From IMG/VR virus record IMGVR_UViG_3300037507_003370, positions 142,292 to 206,291 of that record: DNA of 64,000 bases; one strand, 5' to 3'. Under the pieces are notes generated by a model, which ran no database searches, was not told the DNA's origin, and worked only from the letters and a program-made list of their open reading frames with translations. The position numbers and the translations under genes were made by a program. Of the stretch, positions 26,270-53,276 are shown piece after piece. The DNA is from a virus. Lineage: Duplodnaviria > Caudoviricetes. The stretch's first letter is position 1. Each line of letters opens with the position of its first letter.

Positions 26270-26578
26270 CTATGGTCTTGTTTTTACTTTTTTAAAGTAA
26301 TTTTCACAATCTGATATTATATCTTTATTCCAGCTTTGATAATTCATTAAATGACCAAACGTAAAATGACATGGATCATCGCATAGAGTTATCAAATTTT
26401 CTAAATCTAATTCCTTACTAGGGTCTAAATGAACTGGTACTATATGATGCACTTCTAATTTTTTATTTCTTCCACAAGCAGCGCAATTTGGATTGTTTTT
26501 TAAATGCTGTTTTCTAATTTTTGACCAATCTGGTGACCTTTCTGCAAATCTAATTTTTTTAAAAATTAATCCAAACAT
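26270..26578 (-). CDS. HNH endonuclease
   Basis: CAACG..EVHHIVP..NLITLC..CHFTFGH. Confidence 0.88.
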   Translation of the reverse strand: MFGLIFKKIRFAERSPDWSKIRKQHLKNNPNCAACGRNKKLEVHHIVPVHLDPSKELDLENLITLCDDPCHFTFGHLMNYQSWNKDIISDCENYFKKVKTRP

Positions 26579-27696: not shown

Positions 27697-28599
27697 TTAC
27701 CTCATAGGGAAATTGCCTAGCACTCTACCTTTCTGTGTACGCATTACATATCCTTTTCTTATCATATACGGCTCTATACTGTTTTCTATGGTCTCAATAG
27801 CTATTCCACTGATAGAAGATATGCTTTTTAACCCTAGCGGTGTTCCTCTATGTTTTTGTAAAACCTCAATATATAACCTATCATAGATATCAAAACCATT
27901 ACTATCTACACCCTGATTTAGGAATACTTTATTTATGTCCTGTTCTTTATCCTGATGATATGAGGTATAGCTTTGATACCAATTTAATCTGGCATTAAGA
28001 ATTCTAGGAGTACCCTTGCTTCTTTTAGCAATTTCTAATAAGTCAGATTCATTTATCATTAGTCCGAGCTTTTTTGCGTTCGACTCCGCTAGTTTAGCTA
28101 AGTCATTATCGCTATAAAAGATCAAATGTTCTTTAATTTGAAACCTATCATAGAATGGCTGACTTAGATTTCCTCCAGTTGTTGTTGCTCCTATTAATGT
28201 AAAAGGAGGAATATCTATTTGCTCTGGCTCCTTTTCTAAAACTAGATTTAGAACAAAATCTTCCATAACAGGATACAAGAATTCTTCTACCACTATTGGT
28301 AGTCTATGTATTTCATCTATAAAAAGAACAGAGTTTCTCGATATATTCATTAAATACGGTAAGATATTTTTTATTGCTCTAATATTAGCCGCATTAACGA
28401 CATATATGTTTGCATTTAGCTCATTCGCTATAGCACTTGCCATAGTAGTTTTACCAAGCCCAGGAGGCCCGTCTATTAAAATATGCGGCATCGCATTGCC
28501 AGACTTTAAACACCCTGACACAATGATCCTCATTCTCTCAACAACTTCTGATTGTCCAATAATATCATCAAATTTTGATGGCCTAACTATGTTCGACAT
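27697..28599 (-). CDS. ruvB: Holliday-junction branch-migration AAA+ ATPase RuvB
   Basis: RPSKFDDIIGQ, GPPGLGKTT, FIDEIHRL, TLIGATT, KGTPR, IEPYMI..G...RTQKGR; likely start MSNIVRP. Confidence 0.93.
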   Translation of the reverse strand: MSNIVRPSKFDDIIGQSEVVERMRIIVSGCLKSGNAMPHILIDGPPGLGKTTMASAIANELNANIYVVNAANIRAIKNILPYLMNISRNSVLFIDEIHRLPIVVEEFLYPVMEDFVLNLVLEKEPEQIDIPPFTLIGATTTGGNLSQPFYDRFQIKEHLIFYSDNDLAKLAESNAKKLGLMINESDLLEIAKRSKGTPRILNARLNWYQSYTSYHQDKEQDINKVFLNQGVDSNGFDIYDRLYIEVLQKHRGTPLGLKSISSISGIAIETIENSIEPYMIRKGYVMRTQKGRVLGNFPMR

Positions 28600-28960
28600 T
28601 TTGTTCTCCAATTTTTTTAAGTGCAATCTTCAATATTTGTACAGGATCTGTTATGTCATTTTCTTTTATTGCTTTTTCAACAGCATATGTTGCTTCTTGT
28701 TTTGAAAAACCATAATTAAGCAATCCAGAAATTGCTTTCTTTATATAGTCTTTTTCATTTGTAATTACTGCGTTCTTTTTTGTTTTATATTTAATCTTGA
28801 AAGAATCTACAGTTTTAACTTTCAATATTTTTTTACAGTCACATACGATTAAGAATTTGTCTGTTTTTGCTTCATGTATGGATAACCAATGGTTATATCC
28901 ACAATTCGGGCATGAATATTTTAAATGTAAATCGTATTCAGTTGGCTTTAAATTTTTCAT
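28583..28960 (-). CDS. Zinc ribbon fused to RuvA domain III (RuvB-binding domain)
   Basis: CPNC...CDC N-terminus; C-terminal KAISGLLNYGFSKQEA...ILKIALKKI matches RuvA_C; overlaps the ruvB start. Confidence 0.7.
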   Translation of the reverse strand: MKNLKPTEYDLHLKYSCPNCGYNHWLSIHEAKTDKFLIVCDCKKILKVKTVDSFKIKYKTKKNAVITNEKDYIKKAISGLLNYGFSKQEATYAVEKAIKENDITDPVQILKIALKKIGEQNVEHS

Positions 28961-29351
28961 CTGGGTTATCTTTTATCCAAAAAATAAAATCATTCGACTC
29001 ATCATCAAAACCACTATCCAATACGCCCTTATTGACTAAATTATTTAGCATATTGCTTATCATTCTAGAATTTAGGCTATCTATAAATTTTGAAAACTGA
29101 ATATCCGATATGATATATCTTATGTCATTTGTTTTTTTGTTTTTTTGTTGCTTGACATATTCTTTTAATAAAACTTCTGATTCTTCATAAGAAAGTATTT
29201 TGTTTAGTTCGCCTTCTTCCTCAGAAGTTATTTCATAGATAGAATCATTCTGCTTGATATCTCCAAATGTATTAAATACTAAAATTCTAGTAGAATTAAT
29301 AAATTGCTCGATATCTTTAATGACATACCACCCATCATCTGTAGAACTCAT
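28938..29351 (-). CDS. Hypothetical protein
   Basis: 137-aa ORF with GGAA RBS; C-terminus resembles 48429..48851. Confidence 0.6.
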   Translation of the reverse strand: MSSTDDGWYVIKDIEQFINSTRILVFNTFGDIKQNDSIYEITSEEEGELNKILSYEESEVLLKEYVKQQKNKKTNDIRYIISDIQFSKFIDSLNSRMISNMLNNLVNKGVLDSGFDDESNDFIFWIKDNPDEKFKAN

Positions 29352-29359
29352 GATATTTC

Positions 29360-29773
29360 CTAATTAAGTATCTCGTACAATCCCTTATAATATTTTGGCT
29401 GCTGTAAAAAATACCCAGCATGACTTTGTAGATGTTTGACATATTCACTCGCTAATTTGTTTTGAATAAAATGTTTCTTTTTCCATATTCCTTCGTTCCA
29501 ATAGTTGTTCCCCAAGTACAGGGACTTTTTATCATCCGCTGTACTGGAGAACGAACTATTCACAGGTAACGCAATCGGAGAAAATCCATCTGGAAGTAAA
29601 GGAGTATTATAGTTAGGTAGGTTCTTCAACGCATCCTCTATAACTTCCTTAGTTATCCATTTATATTCTATCTTATTGAGCAGACTATCCATATATTTCT
29701 TGATCCATTCAGTATCTATCTGAAAGTAGAATTTGTAGGGATCATTATCTTCTGGATTGTCAGGATTGTTCAT
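29360..29773 (-). CDS. Hypothetical protein
   Basis: 137-aa ORF in operon. Confidence 0.55.
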   Translation of the reverse strand: MNNPDNPEDNDPYKFYFQIDTEWIKKYMDSLLNKIEYKWITKEVIEDALKNLPNYNTPLLPDGFSPIALPVNSSFSSTADDKKSLYLGNNYWNEGIWKKKHFIQNKLASEYVKHLQSHAGYFLQQPKYYKGLYEILN

Positions 29774-31133: not shown

Positions 31134-31997
31134 TCAGTTATAATCGTCGTAATCTTCCTCATCATCTTCTTCAGCATAAGCCTCTTCGTCATCATCCTCA
31201 TTCCATCCCCAATCATAGTCATTATCATAATCTTCGTCCTCGTCCTCATAATCATCCTCACTAAAGACAGATGAATAAAGAGGCTTGAGAAGTTCGCCTT
31301 GATACTCTCCGACAACTTCATATCGGCAAGTGCGAAGTTTCTCATAGTTACAATCACTAGGAACGCTCACAACATCAGCAGGATTAATCTTAACGATAAC
31401 AATCTTGTCACCGCTTTCAAGACTACCATAACCGGCTACATAATTCAATGCACCAGCATGAAGCCCATTAGAACAACCTCGACCACGATCATCATCAACC
31501 TTTGATCGAGTCATTTCACAAACATTACCAACATGATTATCAAATACTCCGCGATATTTATCCATGTAATCTGCTCTGACTGCCTTATAGGCAAGGAAAT
31601 AACCATCCTCAGTAATGGGCAGATGCTCATGCTCAAGGAAATCATAGAGTTCCTTTTGACTCTGCATACTGGGATTTTCCATAAGATTATTCAGGAAATT
31701 AACAAGAGGCTGGAAAGGCAGACCCTTACTCATGAACTCCAGAATTCTCTTGCTAATAGACCCATGAACAACTTCGCCCTCATAAGTTACCTGACCATTC
31801 TTGATCTCAACAAGACCGTCACTAAAAGTAGCAACTGCCTTCTCAATATCAATCATTTCAAGCAACTCGTCAGATGTTGCAGTAGGCAATGCCTCCAGAA
31901 TCATCTTATAGTTAAGGTGGTCAGGCAGAACTTGAAAACTCTTGTTGTTCAGCACAACCGTCAGATTACCATCAACAAACATAAACGGAACACTCAT
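31134..31997 (-). CDS. rIIB: rIIB-like protein
   Basis: NPSMQSQKELYDFL, LPITEDGYFLAYKAV, CSNGLH, KINPADVVSVPSD; downstream of rIIA; acidic tail. Confidence 0.9.
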   Translation of the reverse strand: MSVPFMFVDGNLTVVLNNKSFQVLPDHLNYKMILEALPTATSDELLEMIDIEKAVATFSDGLVEIKNGQVTYEGEVVHGSISKRILEFMSKGLPFQPLVNFLNNLMENPSMQSQKELYDFLEHEHLPITEDGYFLAYKAVRADYMDKYRGVFDNHVGNVCEMTRSKVDDDRGRGCSNGLHAGALNYVAGYGSLESGDKIVIVKINPADVVSVPSDCNYEKLRTCRYEVVGEYQGELLKPLYSSVFSEDDYEDEDEDYDNDYDWGWNEDDDEEAYAEEDDEEDYDDYN

Positions 31998-32033: not shown

Positions 32034-34694
32034 TTACTTGATCAAACTACTTAACTGAATCTTAAACAATTCAACCTTGTCGCTATCCATACTCTCAACC
32101 CATATAGTATTATTTCTCTTACCATAATAATTATCAGCAAATTGAGAGATAGGATTATTCTTGCTGTCCAAATCTCTAAGACTGCCGTTATTCTGGTTGC
32201 TTCCCATAATATACTTCAACATCGGGTTCTTGTCAACCTCGACTTTAAGAATTTTCTTCAAGTCTGCCGCTTTGGTCAACTTATACTTGATTGCTTTAGC
32301 ATCAGACTTAAACAATTTAGTATATCCCTCAATATCATCAGAATGGTCAAACATCTGATGTTGAATATTTATAAGAGTGTTATATTGTACATTTTTCTTC
32401 TTGAGTTCCTTACTATCAAGATGATCAATACCTCGATCCTTGAGCAAAGAGTTGATATGGTCAAAATATTCAGTCTGAGAGAATCGTTTCAGATCAAAAG
32501 TTGCTCTGTGCATAGTATCAGCAAAGAATTCCATTACAAGAAAACTATCAATAATATTGGATAGTTCAGTATTCTTGATATATTTCTTATATTCAAGACC
32601 AAAAATACTCAACATATGACAAGAGAACTGACTAACCAATGTTCCATGATTATAATAATAATTATCGTTATCACCATCCTTACTGATAAATTCCTTTTTG
32701 TAGAATTCAACAATAGAGTTGTACTCATTGGTATTGTTAAAATAATTCTTAATCTTTGTTGAGAGAATCTTCTTGAACCAAGTGTTAAAGTCAACAAGAT
32801 TGTGTCCTTCACTGGTCATTTTTGCTACAAAATTGTTCTTGATAGCATAAACCTTCACATCTCCAAACAGTCCCTTGATATTCTCATTACCAAATAGCGA
32901 TACAATATTATTAATCTTAGGAAACTCTGGTGTGCTTTGATAACGAAGAATAGGAACATAAATGATAGAATCACTATCGCTCAATTCATCTAGTTCGTCA
33001 CTTGTAAGAGTTTTCAAACTTAGGGCATCGTTATATTCGACACTAAGTTTACCAGAATCCTTAGACTGACCATGAATAAAGAATATGTCTTGATCGCTCA
33101 CACTACCATTACTATTTCTGACTCCACTTTTACGAGGGCCAGAACTTTGAGTAAGATGCTTATAGTCAGAAACCTTGAGCAGATTCTCACTACCGACATC
33201 ATTAATCAGATCATCAAAACCCTTATCGCTTTGAGTATGATCCTTTGTATCCATAATCATGTAAGCAAAGCAATCATTTTGACTACAATAACGTGTCACA
33301 ATCTTCTTTGCAGTTTCTTCTGACTTAACATCACAAACGAAGAAAGCAATTTTCCCATTCTTCTTCTGACTATTCCAGTAAGAATATCCCTTACCCGTCA
33401 GAGTATCGTGATGGATTTTGTCTGTTAGAGAAATAAGGCGTCGTGAACGATACCCGCTGCTCTTGTAATTAAAAACGTACAGGTTCTTGCCAGTCTTGAT
33501 TTTATATTCAAGGTCAGCACCACTATTAATATTGTGGCTCTTACCATTAGGGTCAGTCCAAGATGCACCAACACCCCATCCACCAGACAATTCATTCATC
33601 TGATAATATGTTGTGATAGCCTCAATCTTAGTCTTAGCAGCAGAAATTTTCTTGCTAAATTCATCCTTCATCTCAAGATAAATCTCTTGAGTCTTTTGAC
33701 GCAGAGTTTTAATAACGCCCTTAGTATACTGCAAACCTTCACGGGAAACATCCATTTCCAGTTCGCCAATACCAAAATCAAGTTCCAGATAAAGACCAGA
33801 GTTAATGATCTCAGTAACAAAACTCTTCCACGAATCAATATCGGCCTTCTGGAAAGCCCTATTCCACTTGGCAATATGATCTGGTTGATCCTCCTTCTCC
33901 TGACCAATAATCTGAGCAGTCTGAACAGGATATGCAATATTACCCATGATAGCAACAACGCCACTATCAATACGGTGATAGTTGTTGGGATAATACTGGG
34001 TGTCGTTATTAAGTCTGCAAACTCTCCAACCATTACCACTAATAACAATATTAGTATTGCTATACTTATGATCTTGCAGATTATCTCCAAGTCCACCTTC
34101 AATAATGGGTTTCATTCGGAAATAATGGAAAATCCTGATAGCCTTATTGGTAAACTCACTAAAATCATGATTCTTAACAGCAAAACTGATTTCAAGACCA
34201 TTAGCCTCGTCAGTTTCGCAAGTATTAAAAAGATTCAGAGTAGGAACACCACTATCATCAATAGCGGCAATATAGGTATACTTAGTTCCATTGTAATAAG
34301 AACTAGTAGTAAAACTCTTGGTATAAGCAAAAGGACTCTTGCTACCAAGACCAAGACAACCTACAAAATCGTTACTATCATTCTTGTTAGAAGCACCATA
34401 GGTCGTATAAAGGTTCTCCATATCACCCTGACTAAGACCAGTGCCATAATCACGCACGGTAAAAGAAGGATTAGCAGATGTTGGCAAGATCACCTTGAAG
34501 GGATTCTTATTGCCAGCACTAATATGACTATCATAAGCATTAGTAGATAGTTCACGAATGACTGCTTGAACCTTATCGGAATAAAGAGAGTCCGAAAGGA
34601 TTTTAAACATTTTGCTAGTCTGAGCGATTGTAAAACCAGACTCGCTACGAACACCAGCACTATGAGTCTCAATAACGCGATCTGCCAACTTCAT
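32034..34694 (-). CDS. rIIA: rIIA-like protein (N-terminal GHKL/Hsp90-like ATPase)
   Basis: LYSDK..AVIRELSTNAYD, VRDYGTG, GCLGLGSKSPFAY. Confidence 0.9.
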   Translation of the reverse strand: MKLADRVIETHSAGVRSESGFTIAQTSKMFKILSDSLYSDKVQAVIRELSTNAYDSHISAGNKNPFKVILPTSANPSFTVRDYGTGLSQGDMENLYTTYGASNKNDSNDFVGCLGLGSKSPFAYTKSFTTSSYYNGTKYTYIAAIDDSGVPTLNLFNTCETDEANGLEISFAVKNHDFSEFTNKAIRIFHYFRMKPIIEGGLGDNLQDHKYSNTNIVISGNGWRVCRLNNDTQYYPNNYHRIDSGVVAIMGNIAYPVQTAQIIGQEKEDQPDHIAKWNRAFQKADIDSWKSFVTEIINSGLYLELDFGIGELEMDVSREGLQYTKGVIKTLRQKTQEIYLEMKDEFSKKISAAKTKIEAITTYYQMNELSGGWGVGASWTDPNGKSHNINSGADLEYKIKTGKNLYVFNYKSSGYRSRRLISLTDKIHHDTLTGKGYSYWNSQKKNGKIAFFVCDVKSEETAKKIVTRYCSQNDCFAYMIMDTKDHTQSDKGFDDLINDVGSENLLKVSDYKHLTQSSGPRKSGVRNSNGSVSDQDIFFIHGQSKDSGKLSVEYNDALSLKTLTSDELDELSDSDSIIYVPILRYQSTPEFPKINNIVSLFGNENIKGLFGDVKVYAIKNNFVAKMTSEGHNLVDFNTWFKKILSTKIKNYFNNTNEYNSIVEFYKKEFISKDGDNDNYYYNHGTLVSQFSCHMLSIFGLEYKKYIKNTELSNIIDSFLVMEFFADTMHRATFDLKRFSQTEYFDHINSLLKDRGIDHLDSKELKKKNVQYNTLINIQHQMFDHSDDIEGYTKLFKSDAKAIKYKLTKAADLKKILKVEVDKNPMLKYIMGSNQNNGSLRDLDSKNNPISQFADNYYGKRNNTIWVESMDSDKVELFKIQLSSLIK

Positions 34695-40199: not shown

Positions 40200-40913
40200 T
40201 CAATTTTCAAAAACATATGACCAATAACGAGAATCTGTCTTATTCTGTTTTGCGTCCCAAAAAATAGATCGTGCAATGTATGCTGGGACGCCAATTTTAC
40301 CACAATTAACACTCCAGTGTCTTTCCATTTTTTTATATAGATCAAGACCCTTTTTGGATTGGTATGTCAATGTTTTCATGCCATAAAGTTCAAGCATATG
40401 AGTATCACCACAAAAGACTCTACATTCATTAGGATGAGATTGTTCAAGAGCGAAAGAAACCTTAGCAGTTCCGAGTCCAGAAATATTATTGACAATCTGA
40501 TCTCTTTTCTTAACATGGTACTTCTTAGTTGTAAGATAAAACTCTTTGGGATTTGCCCAGAATTTATCCTTAAAACCCCAAATGAACTTTGTGCGGTTAT
40601 TGTAAAGTCCACATCCACTATTCTTGATCTTTTCTCTTAAAAGTTCTTTATCATCTAGCCATTCACTAAAATTCTTAATAGCGTTATATCCGGCAACATT
40701 AGATTTCCAAGTAGTATGGACGCTCATGTAGGCAAAAAGATATCTACGAAAAATTTCATCATCACTATTTGGTCGAATACTTTCCCAATATTCCTTATAA
40801 CTAACTACCTTATCTTTGGGAAAGTTCTTAAAAAAATCGTCAGCCTTGCTAGTATCCATAGCAATATCTTGAACAGGAATAACAGAGTTCTCAACGATCA
40901 TGGGTTTCTCCAA
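40200..40913 (-). CDS. HhH-GPD superfamily DNA glycosylase-like protein
   Basis: GCGLYNNR, HhH ISGLGTAKVSF, then CGDTHM (Asp). Confidence 0.65.
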   Translation of the reverse strand: MEKPMIVENSVIPVQDIAMDTSKADDFFKNFPKDKVVSYKEYWESIRPNSDDEIFRRYLFAYMSVHTTWKSNVAGYNAIKNFSEWLDDKELLREKIKNSGCGLYNNRTKFIWGFKDKFWANPKEFYLTTKKYHVKKRDQIVNNISGLGTAKVSFALEQSHPNECRVFCGDTHMLELYGMKTLTYQSKKGLDLYKKMERHWSVNCGKIGVPAYIARSIFWDAKQNKTDSRYWSYVFEN

Positions 40914-40976: not shown

Positions 40977-42293
40977 TTAAATCGTTCTAGCAGACCCGTG
41001 TAAAACTTTAAAAGTTGGGAAACGAAGACTTAATCCTCCATCTTGGTTCTTAGTCTCTTCAAAATACTGTACGGTTATTTGCTTACCAAGAATCTTCTTA
41101 GGATTCTTATAGAACTCCTGACGCTGCTCAATACTAAAACCGCTACCAACTCGTACAGTATAATCCTTATGGTTAATCATAACACAAGAAAGCATAGTCT
41201 CCTCATGCTCTGCACCATCTTTAACATAACGAAATGGCCCCATCTCAGTATCAACTACCTCATATTCATCATCAAAAAATTTCTTAACTTTGAGTAGGTC
41301 TTTGCTTCGTTTGCCTTTATACGGTTCGTCAGCACGAAGCATGACTCCTTCCCATTTGTAATCAGTAGCATAGTCTGTCCATTGCAGAAAATCATCATCG
41401 TTTTCAATTTTACATTGTGCCAATACACTAAGACAAGTACAAGTATTATCTCTCATAACTTCTCGCAGATTATTGTAACGAATAGAATAGGGACGATTCT
41501 TTTCACCCTTCTTGCTATAAAATTCATCGTGCGTAATCATATCAAAAATCTTGTATGACGGATTAGGAATAGTGTGATCCTTCTTTTTCAGTTGCTTCAT
41601 AACTCCCTGAAAATCCTCATTACCATCCTCGTCAACCAAACAAAGTTCACCATCAAATACAACATTAGTAATTCCCAATGCCTTGATTCCACCAGCAACA
41701 ATATCAAGGGTATCAAAAGATTTTCCGGTTCGTGAGAAGAAAGAAGCATCGCCATTTTCATCAACAATAGCGATACATCTGGCCCCGTCGATTTTACGAC
41801 TAACATACCAACCGTCCTTCCAACTTACCAGTTTAGGCTCATACTTATCTGCCAGAGCAACACTAAACTCTGGAATATGGTCAGGAATAGCCTTGTTGAT
41901 AATCTTATCGCCAGCACGGGTTTTCAAGTCCTTATCAATAATACAATGAATGAGTTCTTCAATGTTGTTTTTATTTGACTGACTATCAATAAAAGTATGG
42001 ACTGCTCCGATAGCATCGTGACCAGTAATTTTGCGACTCTTTAGGTCATCTAGCAGACCAAAGAAATTCTTATAAGACTTTCCCCTCAAAGAGTTTTTCT
42101 TCTTGAGATTATCACTTGTGACATTATATTGCCAAAGAGGATGGTAGGTATAGAGTAGAATTTTCTTAGCAAAACTTGCAGCCTCAGAATTATGATTACA
42201 ATAATCCTCAATAATCCCTTGCTTATCAATAGTGCTGCTAGTCGCCCTAAGATCACGAACCATATACCAAACATAATTAAAATCGTGAATCAT
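40977..42293 (-). CDS. ATP-dependent DNA ligase
   Basis: Motif I RKIDG, FDGEL, KIFD, EGVML, LLKVK, GSGF, LRFP. Confidence 0.93.
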   Translation of the reverse strand: MIHDFNYVWYMVRDLRATSSTIDKQGIIEDYCNHNSEAASFAKKILLYTYHPLWQYNVTSDNLKKKNSLRGKSYKNFFGLLDDLKSRKITGHDAIGAVHTFIDSQSNKNNIEELIHCIIDKDLKTRAGDKIINKAIPDHIPEFSVALADKYEPKLVSWKDGWYVSRKIDGARCIAIVDENGDASFFSRTGKSFDTLDIVAGGIKALGITNVVFDGELCLVDEDGNEDFQGVMKQLKKKDHTIPNPSYKIFDMITHDEFYSKKGEKNRPYSIRYNNLREVMRDNTCTCLSVLAQCKIENDDDFLQWTDYATDYKWEGVMLRADEPYKGKRSKDLLKVKKFFDDEYEVVDTEMGPFRYVKDGAEHEETMLSCVMINHKDYTVRVGSGFSIEQRQEFYKNPKKILGKQITVQYFEETKNQDGGLSLRFPTFKVLHGSARTI

Positions 42294-45326: not shown

Positions 45327-46145
45327 TTAAAAATAATATTTATCTATCATATCTAAAAATAAATTTAGTCCCATAAATTCTTCAAACGTATTCTTTAGTC
45401 CCCACAAATGTAATATTTTATGTTCTTTTAGTCTGTGTCTTATTCCAATCTCACCTTTTGCTGTTATGGATCCTGGCACTAAAACTGGTAAATTTTGTTT
45501 ATTCATTTTTTTTGCAATAATCGAGGGTAATATATATTGCTCTAAAAATACTGATGTTTTCCAATTATATCCGTCTGTCTTTAGTGTTGATAAAAATTCG
45601 GTTATTTCATTATTATGATTGTTAATACCTGTTATTAGATGATCTATGCTGTTTTTAATAGTAATATAGTCCGTACCGCCAAAAATGCCAAAATTATAAC
45701 ATTGAGCAATATCATTATCTATATTAAACCACTCGTCTATTTTGTCTTTAGGCAACTTACTAAAAAAACAAGTTTTCATCCACGGTTCGTGATGCAAAGT
45801 TATAAAAGGTTCATTTTTATATGGCTGTATAATATCTTCTACTAAAAATAAATCTAAATCCACATGATAAAATGGCTCATTAACTAATAAACAAGAAACA
45901 AGTTTAGTAACAGACCAAAAGTCAAAAGTATTTGGTAATTCATAATCTTTTAAATCTATTATTCTTATATCATCATATGGTATGTGTTTAAAATAAGGTA
46001 GGCTTTTTGTATCAGTATATAATATGGTAGTATATTGATGCTTTTTTAAGAACTTGTTTGATAATTCTGCTTGCTTACTTGCTGCTGAAATATTAGCTCT
46101 GATGCTAGATGTATCGTTAGGGAAAAAGCTATGTATTGTTATCAT
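45327..46145 (-). CDS. Glycosyltransferase-like protein (DUF6734-like)
   Basis: LYTD, FWSVTK, FYHVDLD, NFGIFGG, FLEQ, HLWG. Confidence 0.6.
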   Translation of the reverse strand: MITIHSFFPNDTSSIRANISAASKQAELSNKFLKKHQYTTILYTDTKSLPYFKHIPYDDIRIIDLKDYELPNTFDFWSVTKLVSCLLVNEPFYHVDLDLFLVEDIIQPYKNEPFITLHHEPWMKTCFFSKLPKDKIDEWFNIDNDIAQCYNFGIFGGTDYITIKNSIDHLITGINNHNNEITEFLSTLKTDGYNWKTSVFLEQYILPSIIAKKMNKQNLPVLVPGSITAKGEIGIRHRLKEHKILHLWGLKNTFEEFMGLNLFLDMIDKYYF

Positions 46146-46491
46146 TTTGCTGGTTCCTATTTTTTGCCATGATTAAATAGTTTACAGCCTTAATTACACC
46201 GGTTAAATTGTCATCAAGTTTACCTATGCCAGTATTACACCTATCACAGAGCCAACCTCTAAAAGAATCATCAGAATGATCGTGATCCAAGCACCATTTT
46301 AATGGTATTTTTTTACAACACTCACAAAGTTCTGGTTTTGGTGGTGCTTTTTTATGAAGTTTACCACGAACTTTAGTTTGTTTTTTTACACACTTTTTGC
46401 ATCTGCTATCCAGATTGTCTTTATACATAGTGTGTTTAGGAAAACTTCCTTTGTTTTTCCTTTTACCGCAATATGAACAAATTTTTCTCAT
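46129..46491 (-). CDS. Endonuclease VII-like nuclease
   Basis: CECC..LDHDH...RGWLCDRCNTGIG. Confidence 0.88.
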   Translation of the reverse strand: MRKICSYCGKRKNKGSFPKHTMYKDNLDSRCKKCVKKQTKVRGKLHKKAPPKPELCECCKKIPLKWCLDHDHSDDSFRGWLCDRCNTGIGKLDDNLTGVIKAVNYLIMAKNRNQQNDNNT

Positions 46492-46499
46492 AATATAAG

Positions 46500-46849
46500 T
46501 GGACTAGAGGGGAGTCGAACCCCTGTCCAGAATAAACATCAATATAAACTTCTACATCGTTAGTCTATTGTAATTCGGACACTAGACAAACCTAGAAGAA
46601 ATTATCTTCATCAGATCGGTTACGATCATTGTCTATGTTTTCGGGTTAGACTTCCTTATCAGATTTATCTGAGTCAACATGATTGGGTAATAAGGCCCAT
46701 ATAGCCCCACTCGTACCTAATTAATTAGGCAGCGAGAGCGAGATTTACTTCGCCAATTAACATTTTTTGAATAACTTTTATACTGGCCCGTTATTCAACC
46801 AGTCGATGCCGTCTATATCTATTTTACCTGTCGATACCTTTACTAGCCC
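46500..46849 (-). ncRNA. ssrA: tmRNA, one-piece, tag (A)GEVNLALAA*
   Basis: Acceptor GGGCTAG/CTAGTCC with G3-U70 and A discriminator; 5' GGTATCGAC; T-arm GGGGTTCGACTCCCC; tag ORF 46754-46725; CCA not encoded. Confidence 0.93.
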
Positions 46850-47026
46850 TTAGTTTTCCAGTTCAATCAATCTATCGTGTAGATTACTGACCATTTTTGT
46901 ATGTATCATATCGTTGATCTTATTAACTTCTTTAACAGCCTCCAAAGATTCTGAATGAATAACATTCATTGTTAGTGAAGCAAATAAAACTGATAATAGA
47001 CATATAAACAGAAGTCTGTATTTCAT
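46850..47026 (-). CDS. Small membrane/secreted protein whose stop abuts the tmRNA 5' end
   Basis: 58 aa MKYRLLFICLLSVLFASL..., translated by hand. Confidence 0.5.
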   Translation of the reverse strand: MKYRLLFICLLSVLFASLTMNVIHSESLEAVKEVNKINDMIHTKMVSNLHDRLIELEN

Positions 47027-47086
47027 GATAATCTTTCTTTTAGGCGGGTTAGTTACTTAACTAATGTAAAGGAAGGTCACTATGTT

Positions 47087-47546
47087 TTACACCATTCCGT
47101 TTTTAATCATATTCAGATACTCTTTTTTGCTTATCCAAATATCGTCATTTTGATACCTTTTTGACAATAATGAACGAATCTTTTTTCTTCCAACATAGCA
47201 TGGTTGAAACCTTAAAGATTGTCCACTAAAATAGCATTTCCTATTAAACAAACAATATTTTAATGTCCATTGTCTATCATGTGTAATTTCAGAAATCATT
47301 TTTGATTGGTTCTCTAGTTTTAATATCGTACTTAGTGCCTGAAGTATATGTTTGTTTTGATAGTCTTTTAACTTCTTCCATCAATTTCTTCAGTTCATCA
47401 TTATCAACTGGCGAAGTTATGCTATTAACTATATGATGTAGTTGATTGATTTTTTCAAGAAATATCCAATTAAAACCAACTGACAAAACTAATAGACCAA
47501 CTAAAAGAGTTACTATTGGCATACAGCATAATGAACGATGAGTCAT
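47087..47546 (-). other. Two small hypothetical CDS (47087..47299, 47289..47546)
   Basis: Overlapping co-oriented ORFs. Confidence 0.5.
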
Positions 47547-47620
47547 AAACTTTCCTTATTTTTGATATGATTAGTGTCCACGATATAATAGTTTCACTGT
47601 TATCAAAAGCAAGTTTAAAA

Positions 47621-47696
47621 TAGGGCGAGTAGGAGTCGAACCTACCTATGAACACCTTATAAGAGTGTCGGATGCAACCGGCTTACCTTCCGCCCC
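47621..47696 (-). tRNA. tRNA-Ile(UAU) with atypical D-arm
   Basis: Acceptor GGGGCGG/TCGCCCT, A73, anticodon arm ACACT-CTTATAA-GGTGT, T-arm GTAGG-TTCGACT-CCTAC. Confidence 0.8.
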
Positions 47697-47729
47697 GTCT
47701 TGTTAAAGATCAATCACCGTCCTGCCACC

Positions 47730-47757
47730 ATTATATCATCGTCATCCATCTTGTCAA
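47730..47757 (-). promoter_or_regulatory. Promoter TTGACA-N16-TATAAT for tRNA-Ile
   Basis: Consensus hexamers, extended -10 TG, ~30 nt upstream of the tRNA. Confidence 0.85.
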
Positions 47758-47765
47758 GACTTGAA

Positions 47766-48305
47766 TTATTTTGCGAGATGGCTTGTATATTTGTCGCCCT
47801 CTAATAAACGGTAATAATGTAGTACATAAAAACCTTGTGCTACAATACATTTTTTACCAAGAGAATTTACTTTATTATAAAATAATCTATCAACGTGTAA
47901 TATTCCCTTTTCAAAACCACCTACTTCTTTCCATACTCTTTTTTTAAATGAAAAATAAAATCCAGATAAAAAAGTTCCAGTCATCAGTTTTGTAGAATAT
48001 TGATTTTTATCAAAGAGGTCTTGAGCATATTTTTTATGCTTTATAATATTTTTTTCATTATACATATCTTTGCAAACTTGATCAATATTGGACGTAGCCG
48101 CTCTATTAGTTAGACAAGTAACTATCCCAACATCTTTATTTTGATCTAAAATAGAACCCCATATTTCTCCCCAATTCAGATGTAACTGCATTATATCTCC
48201 ATCAGAAAATGTTATCCAATCATCGTCATCTGGAACAAGACTACAATAATGATTATAGGCTTCTCCTAAGTCACCTTTTACGAAAGGAGTAAAATAATAT
48301 ATCAT
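47766..48305 (-). CDS. GT-A glycosyltransferase-like protein
   Basis: LGEAYN, TFSDGD, VGGFEKG, VLHYYR. Confidence 0.65.
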   Translation of the reverse strand: MIYYFTPFVKGDLGEAYNHYCSLVPDDDDWITFSDGDIMQLHLNWGEIWGSILDQNKDVGIVTCLTNRAATSNIDQVCKDMYNEKNIIKHKKYAQDLFDKNQYSTKLMTGTFLSGFYFSFKKRVWKEVGGFEKGILHVDRLFYNKVNSLGKKCIVAQGFYVLHYYRLLEGDKYTSHLAK

Positions 48306-51433: not shown

Positions 51434-52345
51434 TCATGCCGCAACTCCCTTAGTAATTTCTATGTGATTTTGTATAGCCAAATCTTTTGCTTTTAGTTCC
51501 ATATCCACATCAAATTCCAACCCATAAGTATTAAAAGCATTTTCTGAATAATCAGCGTGTTTACGAGGATTATTTCCAACAGCAGATTCACTATAATGAA
51601 ACAAAGGTTTCGTCTGCCAAGTATCCCAGCACATATTGATAGCCTCACACTCTGTCAAATTATTAGAATGACACTTATGATGCAGATAATCAAAACAGAT
51701 TGGGATGCGTGTAATTGGATGGAAAATATCAACCAATTCTTTTACGCTCCAACAGTTGAGTTTATCGTCGTTTTCAATGGTTAATCGTGCCTGACAATTT
51801 TCATCAAGACGCTTAAAGTTTTCATAAAAACGATGACTAATTTCTTCTCTAGTACCATTGTTATTATGAACGTGTAGATTCATGGGGGAATTAGTGTTTA
51901 CTGGCAAGCCAATTCTATCGAAAAAACTACTATAGAAGTTCAATTCTGTAATAGTCTTTTCCACAACTTTTGGAGTCAAACTAGACAAACTATTAAATTC
52001 TGATGGATGTGCAGAAACTCTTACATTACTACCAATAATACTTTGTGCAATATTATCAAATTCATCTTGAATTTCATCATGATTAGGTAAATCTTCCAAA
52101 CTTACATTAGCCTCATCATAAGTAATAAGGGGGAAAATGTCACTACTAACACGATAAACATAATCATTCTGTCCGCAAAACTCAATAGTTTTACGAGTAG
52201 TAATAAGATTATTAAGAATCCTATCTCCAAGGATTGTTATGGCTTCTTCTCGCGGCAGAGAATCGAAGCGTTTAAAAGTCATGGTCTGATGACAAATACC
52301 CTGCTCTTTAAGTTTGAGCGAAATGCAACACAGTCCGTAACGCAT
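51434..52345 (-). CDS. uvsE: UV-damage endonuclease (UvsE/Uve1 family)
   Basis: Start MRYGLCC; YRVSSDIFP, SAHP, NLHV, LTIENDD, PICFDYLHH, PLFHYS, HAD, MELKAKD. Confidence 0.92.
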   Translation of the reverse strand: MRYGLCCISLKLKEQGICHQTMTFKRFDSLPREEAITILGDRILNNLITTRKTIEFCGQNDYVYRVSSDIFPLITYDEANVSLEDLPNHDEIQDEFDNIAQSIIGSNVRVSAHPSEFNSLSSLTPKVVEKTITELNFYSSFFDRIGLPVNTNSPMNLHVHNNNGTREEISHRFYENFKRLDENCQARLTIENDDKLNCWSVKELVDIFHPITRIPICFDYLHHKCHSNNLTECEAINMCWDTWQTKPLFHYSESAVGNNPRKHADYSENAFNTYGLEFDVDMELKAKDLAIQNHIEITKGVAA

Positions 52346-52364
52346 AGTCTCCTCGTTTCTTACC

Positions 52365-52392
52365 ACTATACCATAAGTATCGGCATAGTCAA
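52365..52392 (-). promoter_or_regulatory. Promoter TTGACT-N16-TATAGT with CCGATA
   Basis: Upstream of uvsE. Confidence 0.8.
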
Positions 52393-52583
52393 GAGGCAAC
52401 TTGAAAAATTTCTTCCGCACTGTAAATTTTAACTAGAGAATATTCTATACTAGGAAAATGAAGTTTGAAATTAGATAATGCTTCATCAGACGATGCACCG
52501 TCGTGAACCTCATTTATTAATAGATTCTGTTTTGATGAATCATTATTCTTATAAACTTGAGCAGTAATATTAAACAGTTTCAT
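52389..52583 (-). CDS. Hypothetical protein
   Basis: 64-aa ORF. Confidence 0.45.
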   Translation of the reverse strand: MKLFNITAQVYKNNDSSKQNLLINEVHDGASSDEALSNFKLHFPSIEYSLVKIYSAEEIFQVAS

Positions 52584-52622: not shown

Positions 52623-53276
52623 TTAAATAATCCATTCTTTATCATACCCACCAAGAGCCTCACTAACGGTAGGAAACTGTTCACAAAAAATCTTTTTACA
52701 CTCTTTTGCAATAATCATATGTTCTTTTTGAGTTCCACTTTTTTCTCTGAGTGCTATATAGGTCATCCATGATCTAGGGTTTCCTGTCATATATAGTCTA
52801 GTTGGAGTTGCTAGGGGTAATATAAATCTGGCACACTCTTTTGCTACTCCATCTTTAATCATACCATCGTATATTGCTTTGCCTTTAGCAAAATGCTCTC
52901 GTATCTGAGTATTCCATTTTACCTTAATTTCATCAGAAATATTTTCAATACTATTTTGTCTATTTTTATTATCTTGTCCACGAAGTTCAAATAGTGGAAT
53001 TTCTTCAGCTAATAATGTAGTGTCAGCATATCTTTGCGAAAATTCCTGAAAATTAAAACTTCTATGTCGTAAAATTTGAGCGGCTAATCCTCTAGTTGTG
53101 TTAATTTCTAGACTTAGTGATGCGTGTTCAAAAATAGAAATATGCTTATGATCAATACAATACTTTAAAAGTTTAGCATAGTTATCGTTGTTTTGATTAT
53201 TCGGATTGCTTACTCTCGCACAATAGGCCATTAATTTTTCAGCATCTGGAGTAACACTAACTAATTTTACGTTCAT
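52623..53276 (-). CDS. thyX: Flavin-dependent thymidylate synthase
   Basis: ARVS, HISIFEH, QILRHRSFNFQEFSQRY, ARFILP. Confidence 0.95.
   Translation of the reverse strand: MNVKLVSVTPDAEKLMAYCARVSNPNNQNNDNYAKLLKYCIDHKHISIFEHASLSLEINTTRGLAAQILRHRSFNFQEFSQRYADTTLLAEEIPLFELRGQDNKNRQNSIENISDEIKVKWNTQIREHFAKGKAIYDGMIKDGVAKECARFILPLATPTRLYMTGNPRSWMTYIALREKSGTQKEHMIIAKECKKIFCEQFPTVSEALGGYDKEWII

Follow-up and report, generated by a model that had tools for sequence, protein, structure and literature searches.

A predicted zinc ribbon–RuvA domain III protein encoded head to tail with ruvB in a large uncultured water phage

Branch migration in bacteria is the textbook role of the RuvAB complex, and to our knowledge the RuvB motor is coupled to DNA through a RuvA tetramer in all described cases. 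A ruvB gene found in a stretch of 64,000 nucleotides (hereafter the window; positions 142,292 to 206,291 of the IMG/VR record IMGVR_UViG_3300037507_003370) from a large, AT-rich (about 30% GC), uncultured water phage raises the question of what serves this motor when the gene preceding it encodes only one part of RuvA. The initial annotation had described the gene overlapping the ruvB start as holding only the C-terminal three-helix domain of RuvA (domain III, D3), with the OB and helix-hairpin-helix (HhH) domains replaced by a zinc ribbon with the motifs CPNC and CDC and by a basic linker. The first description is borne out by sequence profiles, hhalign, Foldseek and VIA, and the second by profiles and the predicted structure. 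We call the encoded protein, of 125 residues, the adaptor (coordinates of all features are collected in Table 1). The adaptor system is a variant of RuvAB, in which the RuvB motor and the RuvA-domain handle are known and the junction-binding platform is replaced.

The AlphaFold2 (AF2) model of the adaptor, calculated from an alignment of 79 family sequences, consists of two domains and has a mean predicted local distance difference test score (pLDDT) of 92.4, with about 95 in the D3 region. Residues 76-117 match Pfam RuvA_C (PF07499) with E=1.1e-4 and 23.0 bits, and the last 59 positions (144-202 of 202) of the NCBIfam ruvA model TIGR00084 align to the adaptor with E=9e-5. When the family profile was compared with the PDB, D3 of Thermus thermophilus RuvA (1ixs_A, the D3 chain crystallised with RuvB) was matched at 5.4e-4 over the whole domain, with other RuvA chains weaker, and hhalign of the family against three bacterial RuvA proteins gave E 2.2e-5 with a probability of 76%. 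The sequence matches agree with one another, each being near threshold, and this profile comparison, of the kind that the initial annotation had proposed, is in line with the RuvA_C identity. RuvA_C is matched by 10 of the 79 family members (best 3.5e-6), and no other Pfam family is matched by more than two. A PDB search with the single adaptor sequence gave chance zinc-knuckle matches only.

With respect to the fold, a Foldseek search with the D3 model places RuvA at ranks 1-6 and in most of the top 40, with a root-mean-square deviation (rmsd) of 1-2 Å over 44-48 residues. In the VIA search, in which D3 was compared all against structural representatives, the top four alignments are RuvA D3 (2ztc, 1ixs, 1ixr and 7pbp, with Z of 8.6, 7.7, 7.6 and 7.5; rmsd 1.4-1.8 Å over 48-51 residues), and the following ones (Z 6.3 or less) are UBA-like and other helical folds. 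The presence of UBA, CUE and EF-Ts N-terminal domains among the fold matches (Z 5-6), together with the modest single-sequence statistics (E about 1e-4), is what one would expect if the C-terminal domain were a generic UBA-like three-helix bundle with a role unrelated to RuvB, placed next to ruvB by operon packing. We regard this as the least probable of the explanations considered here: RuvA comes first by every sequence and structure method, the positions that activate RuvB are conserved, and the linkage to ruvB is strict. The C-terminal domain is, as predicted from its profiles and modeled fold, a homologue of RuvA domain III.

The mutation of L167 and L170 in Escherichia coli RuvA abolishes RuvB activity, with junction binding unaffected (PMC2628435). 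These residues correspond to L80 of the adaptor (L, M or F in 79 of 79 sequences) and to Y83 (Y, F, L or M in 74 of 79), respectively. G171 corresponds to the invariant G84 of the adaptor, E176 to E89, R196 to K111 and L199 to L114. The hydrophobic positions of helix alpha7 needed for RuvB activation are kept in the adaptor family.

The remainder of the protein has no counterpart in RuvA. Neither an OB fold (RuvA_N, E<=1) nor an HhH motif (HHH_5) is matched in the adaptor by Pfam, the score against the full TIGR00084 model is 22.2 bits (cut-off 85) with the C-terminus alone aligning, and in the AF2 model no helices intervene between the ribbon and D3. By the profiles and the model, domains I and II of RuvA are both absent from the adaptor. 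The N-terminal domain carries the motifs C17-P-N-C20 and C40-D-C42, two cysteine pairs placed on beta-hairpin knuckles as in a zinc ribbon, and both the CxxC and the CxC pair are invariant in the 79 sequences. The residues Y15 and W25 are invariant as well, while P6, H24 and K49 are nearly so. Modeled alone in AF2, the ribbon shows four short strands (pLDDT 90.8). Its structural neighbours in Foldseek and VIA are generic (ZitP at Z 3.6, LysW and ribosomal S27e), and no specific fold could be assigned from them, with Z of 3.6 or less. The ribbon is followed by a lysine-rich linker, KIKYKTKKNAVITNE, which is the lowest-confidence block of the AF2 model (pLDDT 64) and includes the KIKYKTKK stretch at residues 55-62. 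Over 63 family members, with the domains split by motif, the linker is 0-32 residues long and has a mean net charge of +2.

The RuvB encoded downstream starts most likely at ATG 28599, with a GGAG sequence 6 nucleotides upstream, and consists of 300 residues. It is matched by the Pfam families RuvB_N (2.3e-47), AAA_lid_4 (4.6e-9) and RuvB_C (7e-18), and the three-domain architecture (AAA+ large domain, lid and winged helix) is present together with the presensor-1 hairpin. The protein scores above the cut-off of the NCBIfam equivalog NF000868 (303.7 bits, cut-off 282) but below that of TIGR00635 (276.6 bits, cut-off 299), which marks it as a divergent member of RuvB. Residues 4-293 align to E. 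coli RuvB (9dx3) with 226 bits, and in this alignment Walker A (GPPGLGKT), Walker B (FIDEIH), and the DRF and GTPRI motifs are all seen. The basic C-terminal hairpin is also kept (RTQKGR, versus RTPRGR in E. coli). The identity to bacterial RuvB proteins is about 38% (35-39%). As judged from these alignments, the phage RuvB is a genuine and intact, but divergent, member of the family.

The best RuvB matches in the phage collection are likewise 35-39% identical. The two records inspected, out of 51, CAKLQF020000007.1 ('Acinetobacter phage MD-2021a') and MN180249.1 ('Wolbachia phage WO (unverified)'), are segments of bacterial chromosome filed as phage, with a canonical ruvA-ruvB flanked by housekeeping genes (purL, dgt, tolQ or mraY, rnhB, purF), so that the RuvB matches in this collection include bacterial DNA. 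At the DNA level, nothing near the window was found in the collection of isolated phages.

In E. coli RuvB the presensor-1 hairpin, L135-L152, contacts RuvA (PMC2628435, PMC9477746). The hairpin of the phage RuvB, LNLVLEKEPEQIDI, aligns to this segment with a tip shorter by 4 residues, and a presensor-1 hairpin is found in all 63 distinct relatives of the protein. By analogy, it is expected to be the docking site for D3 of the adaptor. The tip of the hairpin (about residues 121-127) is polymorphic, and many relatives have an insertion of 5-7 acidic and basic residues (such as KDEQDKEKPE; examples are the loci L026 and L061). A correlation of this insertion with the presence of the adaptor was looked for and is not visible, the insertion being found in relatives with and without the adaptor.

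The end of the adaptor gene and the start of ruvB overlap by 17 nucleotides; the alternative listed RuvB start, TTG 28626, would give an overlap of 44 nucleotides with the adaptor open reading frame (ORF). To see how general the arrangement is, IMG/VR was searched with the phage RuvB, and 80 of the 163 stretches found were kept as related loci (contigs of up to 238 kb), with RuvB proteins of 63-74% identity to that of the window. In 60 of the 80 loci, the gene immediately preceding ruvB encodes a member of the adaptor family. Its stop codon overlaps or abuts the ruvB ATG, with an overlap of 8 nucleotides in 33 of these 60, and this recurrence, with the conserved stop/start overlap, means that the arrangement is not due to chance. 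The overlap is, from its sequence, predicted to couple the translation of the two genes. In a search made from the adaptor side, RuvB lies immediately downstream of distant members of the family (29-35% identical) in all six contigs with downstream DNA. As to co-occurrence across phages, a check named in the initial annotation, ruvB is found beside the adaptor in 66 of 66 informative contigs, and the adaptor was never seen without a ruvB neighbour.

When 1.84 billion representatives were searched exhaustively, the family came to 296 clusters with E of 1e-3 or lower. The best 150 of the 296 clusters are 65-184 residues long, and no longer or fused forms were found, an observation that carries little weight. 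The clusters are labelled viral where the taxa are known, and the ESM Atlas names neighbouring clusters viral hypothetical proteins. Close protein relatives of the adaptor were not found in isolated phages. A peptide-pattern search of viral contigs with the adaptor as the query returned nothing, the adaptor being too divergent for such patterns.

Sequence change is much faster in the adaptor than in RuvB (29-57% versus 63-74% identity), as is often the case in host-directed proteins, and cross-species complementation between RuvA and RuvB is known (PMC9477746), so D3 could bind a foreign RuvB. Both points are in line with the adaptor acting as a decoy or hijacker, whose D3 would bind the host RuvB and either block the host RuvAB or draw the host RuvB to phage DNA. 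However, the adaptor is coupled to the phage's own ruvB in every one of the informative contigs, and we consider such a role very unlikely.

No RuvA or RuvC was matched among about 38 ORFs of the window scanned with Pfam or PHROGs, and a tblastn search of the window with two bacterial RuvA proteins gave nothing. The statement in the initial annotation that the window contains no RuvC holds for these scanned ORFs. The search for canonical ruvA and ruvC was extended to ten relatives with complete genomes (CheckV 100% complete, 150-238 kb, four with terminal repeats). None of the ten yields a RuvA_N (domain I) match at E<=1, whereas the bacteria included as controls do; five of the ten were also searched for RuvC, with no match, and for HHH_5, with no match above the cut-off. 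A Pfam search of related genomes for RuvA_C missed even those that carry the adaptor and is too insensitive to inform. Endonuclease VII (EndoVII) is present in all five complete relatives tested, and a recombinase of the RecA/UvsX family in five of five (four of the genomes tested for EndoVII and one other complete relative). PF11637, which is UvsW.1 and not UvsW, was not matched anywhere. The gene content of the complete relatives indicates that these phages bring a recombinase, a motor and a resolvase of their own, but no RuvA platform.

Taken together with the domain composition, this makes the adaptor probably a minimal, phage-specific RuvA substitute, which would dock on the phage RuvB and activate or tether the motor. 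D3 of RuvA is described as a nucleotide-exchange factor, an activator of the RuvB ATPase, and a fulcrum (PMC9477746). By the same route, D3 of the adaptor would dock on RuvB at its presensor-1 beta-hairpin and at helix alpha3, where it may stimulate ADP release or nucleotide exchange and ATP hydrolysis, and it would give the RuvB hexamer a fixed point against which to pull DNA. Anchoring, the task of domains I and II in RuvA, would fall to the basic zinc ribbon and the lysine-rich linker, most likely through direct binding to DNA, or else to another phage protein. The adaptor-RuvB pair could then drive branch migration or the remodelling of recombination and repair intermediates, which the UvsX/RecA-type recombinase would produce and endonuclease VII would cleave.

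Several observations weigh against a RuvA substitute of this kind. The RuvA_C score of the adaptor is 1 bit under the Pfam gathering score of 24. Structural comparison gives the zinc ribbon no specific relative (best Z 3.6), and its net charge, computed with the motif-based domain split, is moderately basic, with a mean of +3.2 and a range from -6 to +9, so DNA binding by the ribbon is a guess. In 20 of the 80 related ruvB loci there is no adaptor, and orf137a, the next gene upstream, abuts ruvB directly; three complete genomes keep ruvB without any member of the adaptor family at E<=1. The absences are scattered on the RuvB tree (about 10 changes, at least two of them forced by well-supported branches), and the RuvB hairpin does not visibly differ between relatives with and without the adaptor. 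The RuvA of the host, moreover, could be a partner for the phage RuvB as well. Repeated loss of the adaptor from lineages that retain RuvB shows it to be accessory rather than an obligatory replacement of RuvA, and RuvB evidently works in its absence in some of them. The proposal in the initial annotation that the adaptor works instead of RuvA is accordingly retained in part: no RuvA_N is found in the ten complete relatives, but the losses and the availability of a host RuvA speak against strict replacement.

The dispensability of the adaptor in these 20 loci would also be explained if it were a pure regulator, with D3 as a soluble exchange or ATPase factor, the zinc ribbon stabilising or oligomerising the protein, and the junction recognised by the host RuvA or by RuvB alone. 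Such a role agrees with the activities described for D3 and with the generic character of the ribbon. It is nevertheless unlikely in our opinion, since of the two halves of the protein the zinc ribbon is the better conserved (seven invariant or near-invariant positions, cysteine and non-cysteine, and several conserved lysines), which argues for a specific ligand, and since the action of RuvA as a fulcrum (PMC9477746) requires anchoring.

The substitute for RuvA proposed above need not act on Holliday junctions in the same manner as RuvA. As a tentative possibility, the zinc ribbon-D3 protein, perhaps with the products of orf137a and orf137b, may be a RuvA-independent loader that sets the RuvB hexamer on DNA structures other than a four-way junction in the grip of a RuvA tetramer, such as forks, D-loops or duplex beside a lesion. 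The genes orf137a, the 125-residue ORF, and ruvB are three minus-strand ORFs arranged head to tail, each overlapping the next, with orf137a overlapping the adaptor start by 23 nucleotides. The conserved block in the 80 related loci consists of rIIB (75), a primase-like gene (49), orf137b (79), orf137a (80), the adaptor (60) and RuvB (80), whereas the genes downstream of ruvB are variable. Both orf137a and orf137b thus accompany ruvB more consistently than the adaptor does, and they are possible further members of the adaptor-RuvB module. Neither is matched by Pfam, PHROG, NCBIfam or PDB profiles. The idea that they are RuvA domains I and II in disguise was rejected, as hhalign against RuvA gives a probability below 1% and there is no family match. 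A low-confidence Atlas model hints at a winged helix in the C-terminal half of orf137a.

In addition to rIIB, the window encodes rIIA, many glycosyltransferases, and a DNA-repair kit of an Ogg-like glycosylase, a ligase, UvdE, and ThyX (Table 1), and this kit fits a phage of sunlit water and a repair role for RuvB. The EndoVII gene is likely the junction resolvase of the source phage; it is not adjacent to the adaptor/ruvB pair but is separated from it by 17 kb. The initial annotation had proposed that a new adaptor retargets RuvB to a different DNA structure or protein, perhaps in concert with EndoVII or the nearby primase; this is speculative, since the ribbon resembles none but generic zinc ribbons, and the primase-like gene is found in only 49 of the 80 loci. 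The repair genes (UvdE, the Ogg-like glycosylase, and the ligase), together with EndoVII and the UvsX-type recombinase of the relatives, suggest recombinational repair or recombination-dependent replication. Directly beside the EndoVII gene lies a transfer-messenger RNA (46497-46849, minus strand; Rfam RF00023, 95.7 bits), for which ARAGORN gives the tag peptide GEVNLALAA. A tRNA-Ile with the anticodon TAT is assigned by ARAGORN at 47621-47696 (minus strand), and no tRNA is listed in the Rfam gathering-threshold scan of 46000-48000. A small HNH endonuclease gene (26270-26578, minus strand) is located downstream of ruvB and has homologues in 37 of the 80 related loci, which suggests a mobile gene of the homing type.

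Table 1. Features of the window discussed in the text, with their positions, strand and the evidence for each.
Feature	Positions	Strand	Evidence or remarks
ruvB (300 residues from ATG 28599)	27697-28599	-	RuvB_N, AAA_lid_4, RuvB_C; NF000868
RuvB presensor-1 beta-hairpin, residues 117-130, LNLVLEKEPEQIDI	28210-28251	-	Alignment to E. coli hairpin
Adaptor gene, 125 residues: zinc ribbon, linker, RuvA domain III	28583-28960	-	ORF; AF2 model
Adaptor end / ruvB start overlap, 17 nucleotides	28583-28599	-	Sequence; overlap kept in relatives
RuvA domain III-like three-helix domain, residues 70-123	28592-28753	-	Pfam, PDB profile, hhalign, Foldseek, VIA
Lysine-rich flexible linker, residues 55-69, KIKYKTKKNAVITNE	28754-28798	-	Low-confidence model block
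N-terminal four-cysteine zinc ribbon, residues 1-54	28799-28960	-	Cysteine motifs, AF2 model
orf137a, unknown protein upstream of the pair	28938-29351	-	80/80 loci
orf137b, unknown protein	29360-29773	-	79/80 loci
rIIB	31134-31997	-	
rIIA	32034-34694	-	
Ogg-like HhH glycosylase	40200-40913	-	
ATP-dependent DNA ligase	40977-42293	-	
Endonuclease VII (EndoVII)	46129-46491	-	Pfam Endonuclease_7 2.3e-10, phrog_2633 1.4e-20
UvdE ultraviolet-damage endonuclease	51434-52420	-	
ThyX	52623-53276	-	

In comparison with bacterial RuvA (E. coli, T. thermophilus; 1ixs, 7pbl), the adaptor has the same C-terminal D3, with an L-x-x-[L/Y]-G-[Y/F] helix and a conserved Glu, carried on a flexible linker and encoded by a gene directly upstream of ruvB and coupled to it, and a contact with the RuvB presensor-1 hairpin is expected by analogy. 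It differs in having neither domain I (OB fold) nor domain II (two HhH), and hence no tetramer or junction platform, in the roughly 55-residue four-cysteine zinc ribbon, in its length (125 residues versus about 200), and in being dispensable in a quarter of the related phages. The nearest likeness to D3 as a module without domains I and II is the isolated RuvA domain III (Nishino et al.; in 1ixs and 7x7p), which binds RuvB and regulates its ATPase (PMC9477746). That protein, however, is a laboratory fragment, whereas the adaptor is a natural gene with a zinc ribbon, distributed across hundreds of phage lineages.

With the T4-type set (UvsX, UvsW and gp49 endonuclease VII) the window phage shares rIIA/rIIB, the ATP-dependent ligase, and EndoVII, and its relatives have the RecA/UvsX-family recombinase. 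In T4, branch migration is carried out by the superfamily 2 helicase UvsW, while the window phage has an AAA+ RuvB with a D3 adaptor. The Mgs1/WRNIP1/RarA proteins are clamp-loader/RuvB-like AAA+ ATPases that carry a zinc finger at the N-terminus, and this small module guides the ATPase to the place where it acts. The zinc finger of Mgs1/WRNIP1 binds ubiquitin and is fused to the ATPase itself, whereas the zinc ribbon of the adaptor is on a protein separate from RuvB, and the likeness is one of analogy alone. A literature search brought up no description of a zinc ribbon-D3 protein as the partner of a phage RuvB.

In general, if the proposed role is correct, D3 would be a portable 'RuvB handle' that evolution can graft onto unrelated targeting modules. 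The pair would form a minimal system, of 125 and 300 residues, in which to separate two roles of RuvA, the activation of the motor and the holding of the junction, and the lineages that have lost the adaptor provide natural controls, with RuvB proteins working with and without it. The adaptor and RuvB would then represent an unstudied route of recombination or repair in abundant phages of lakes and oceans.

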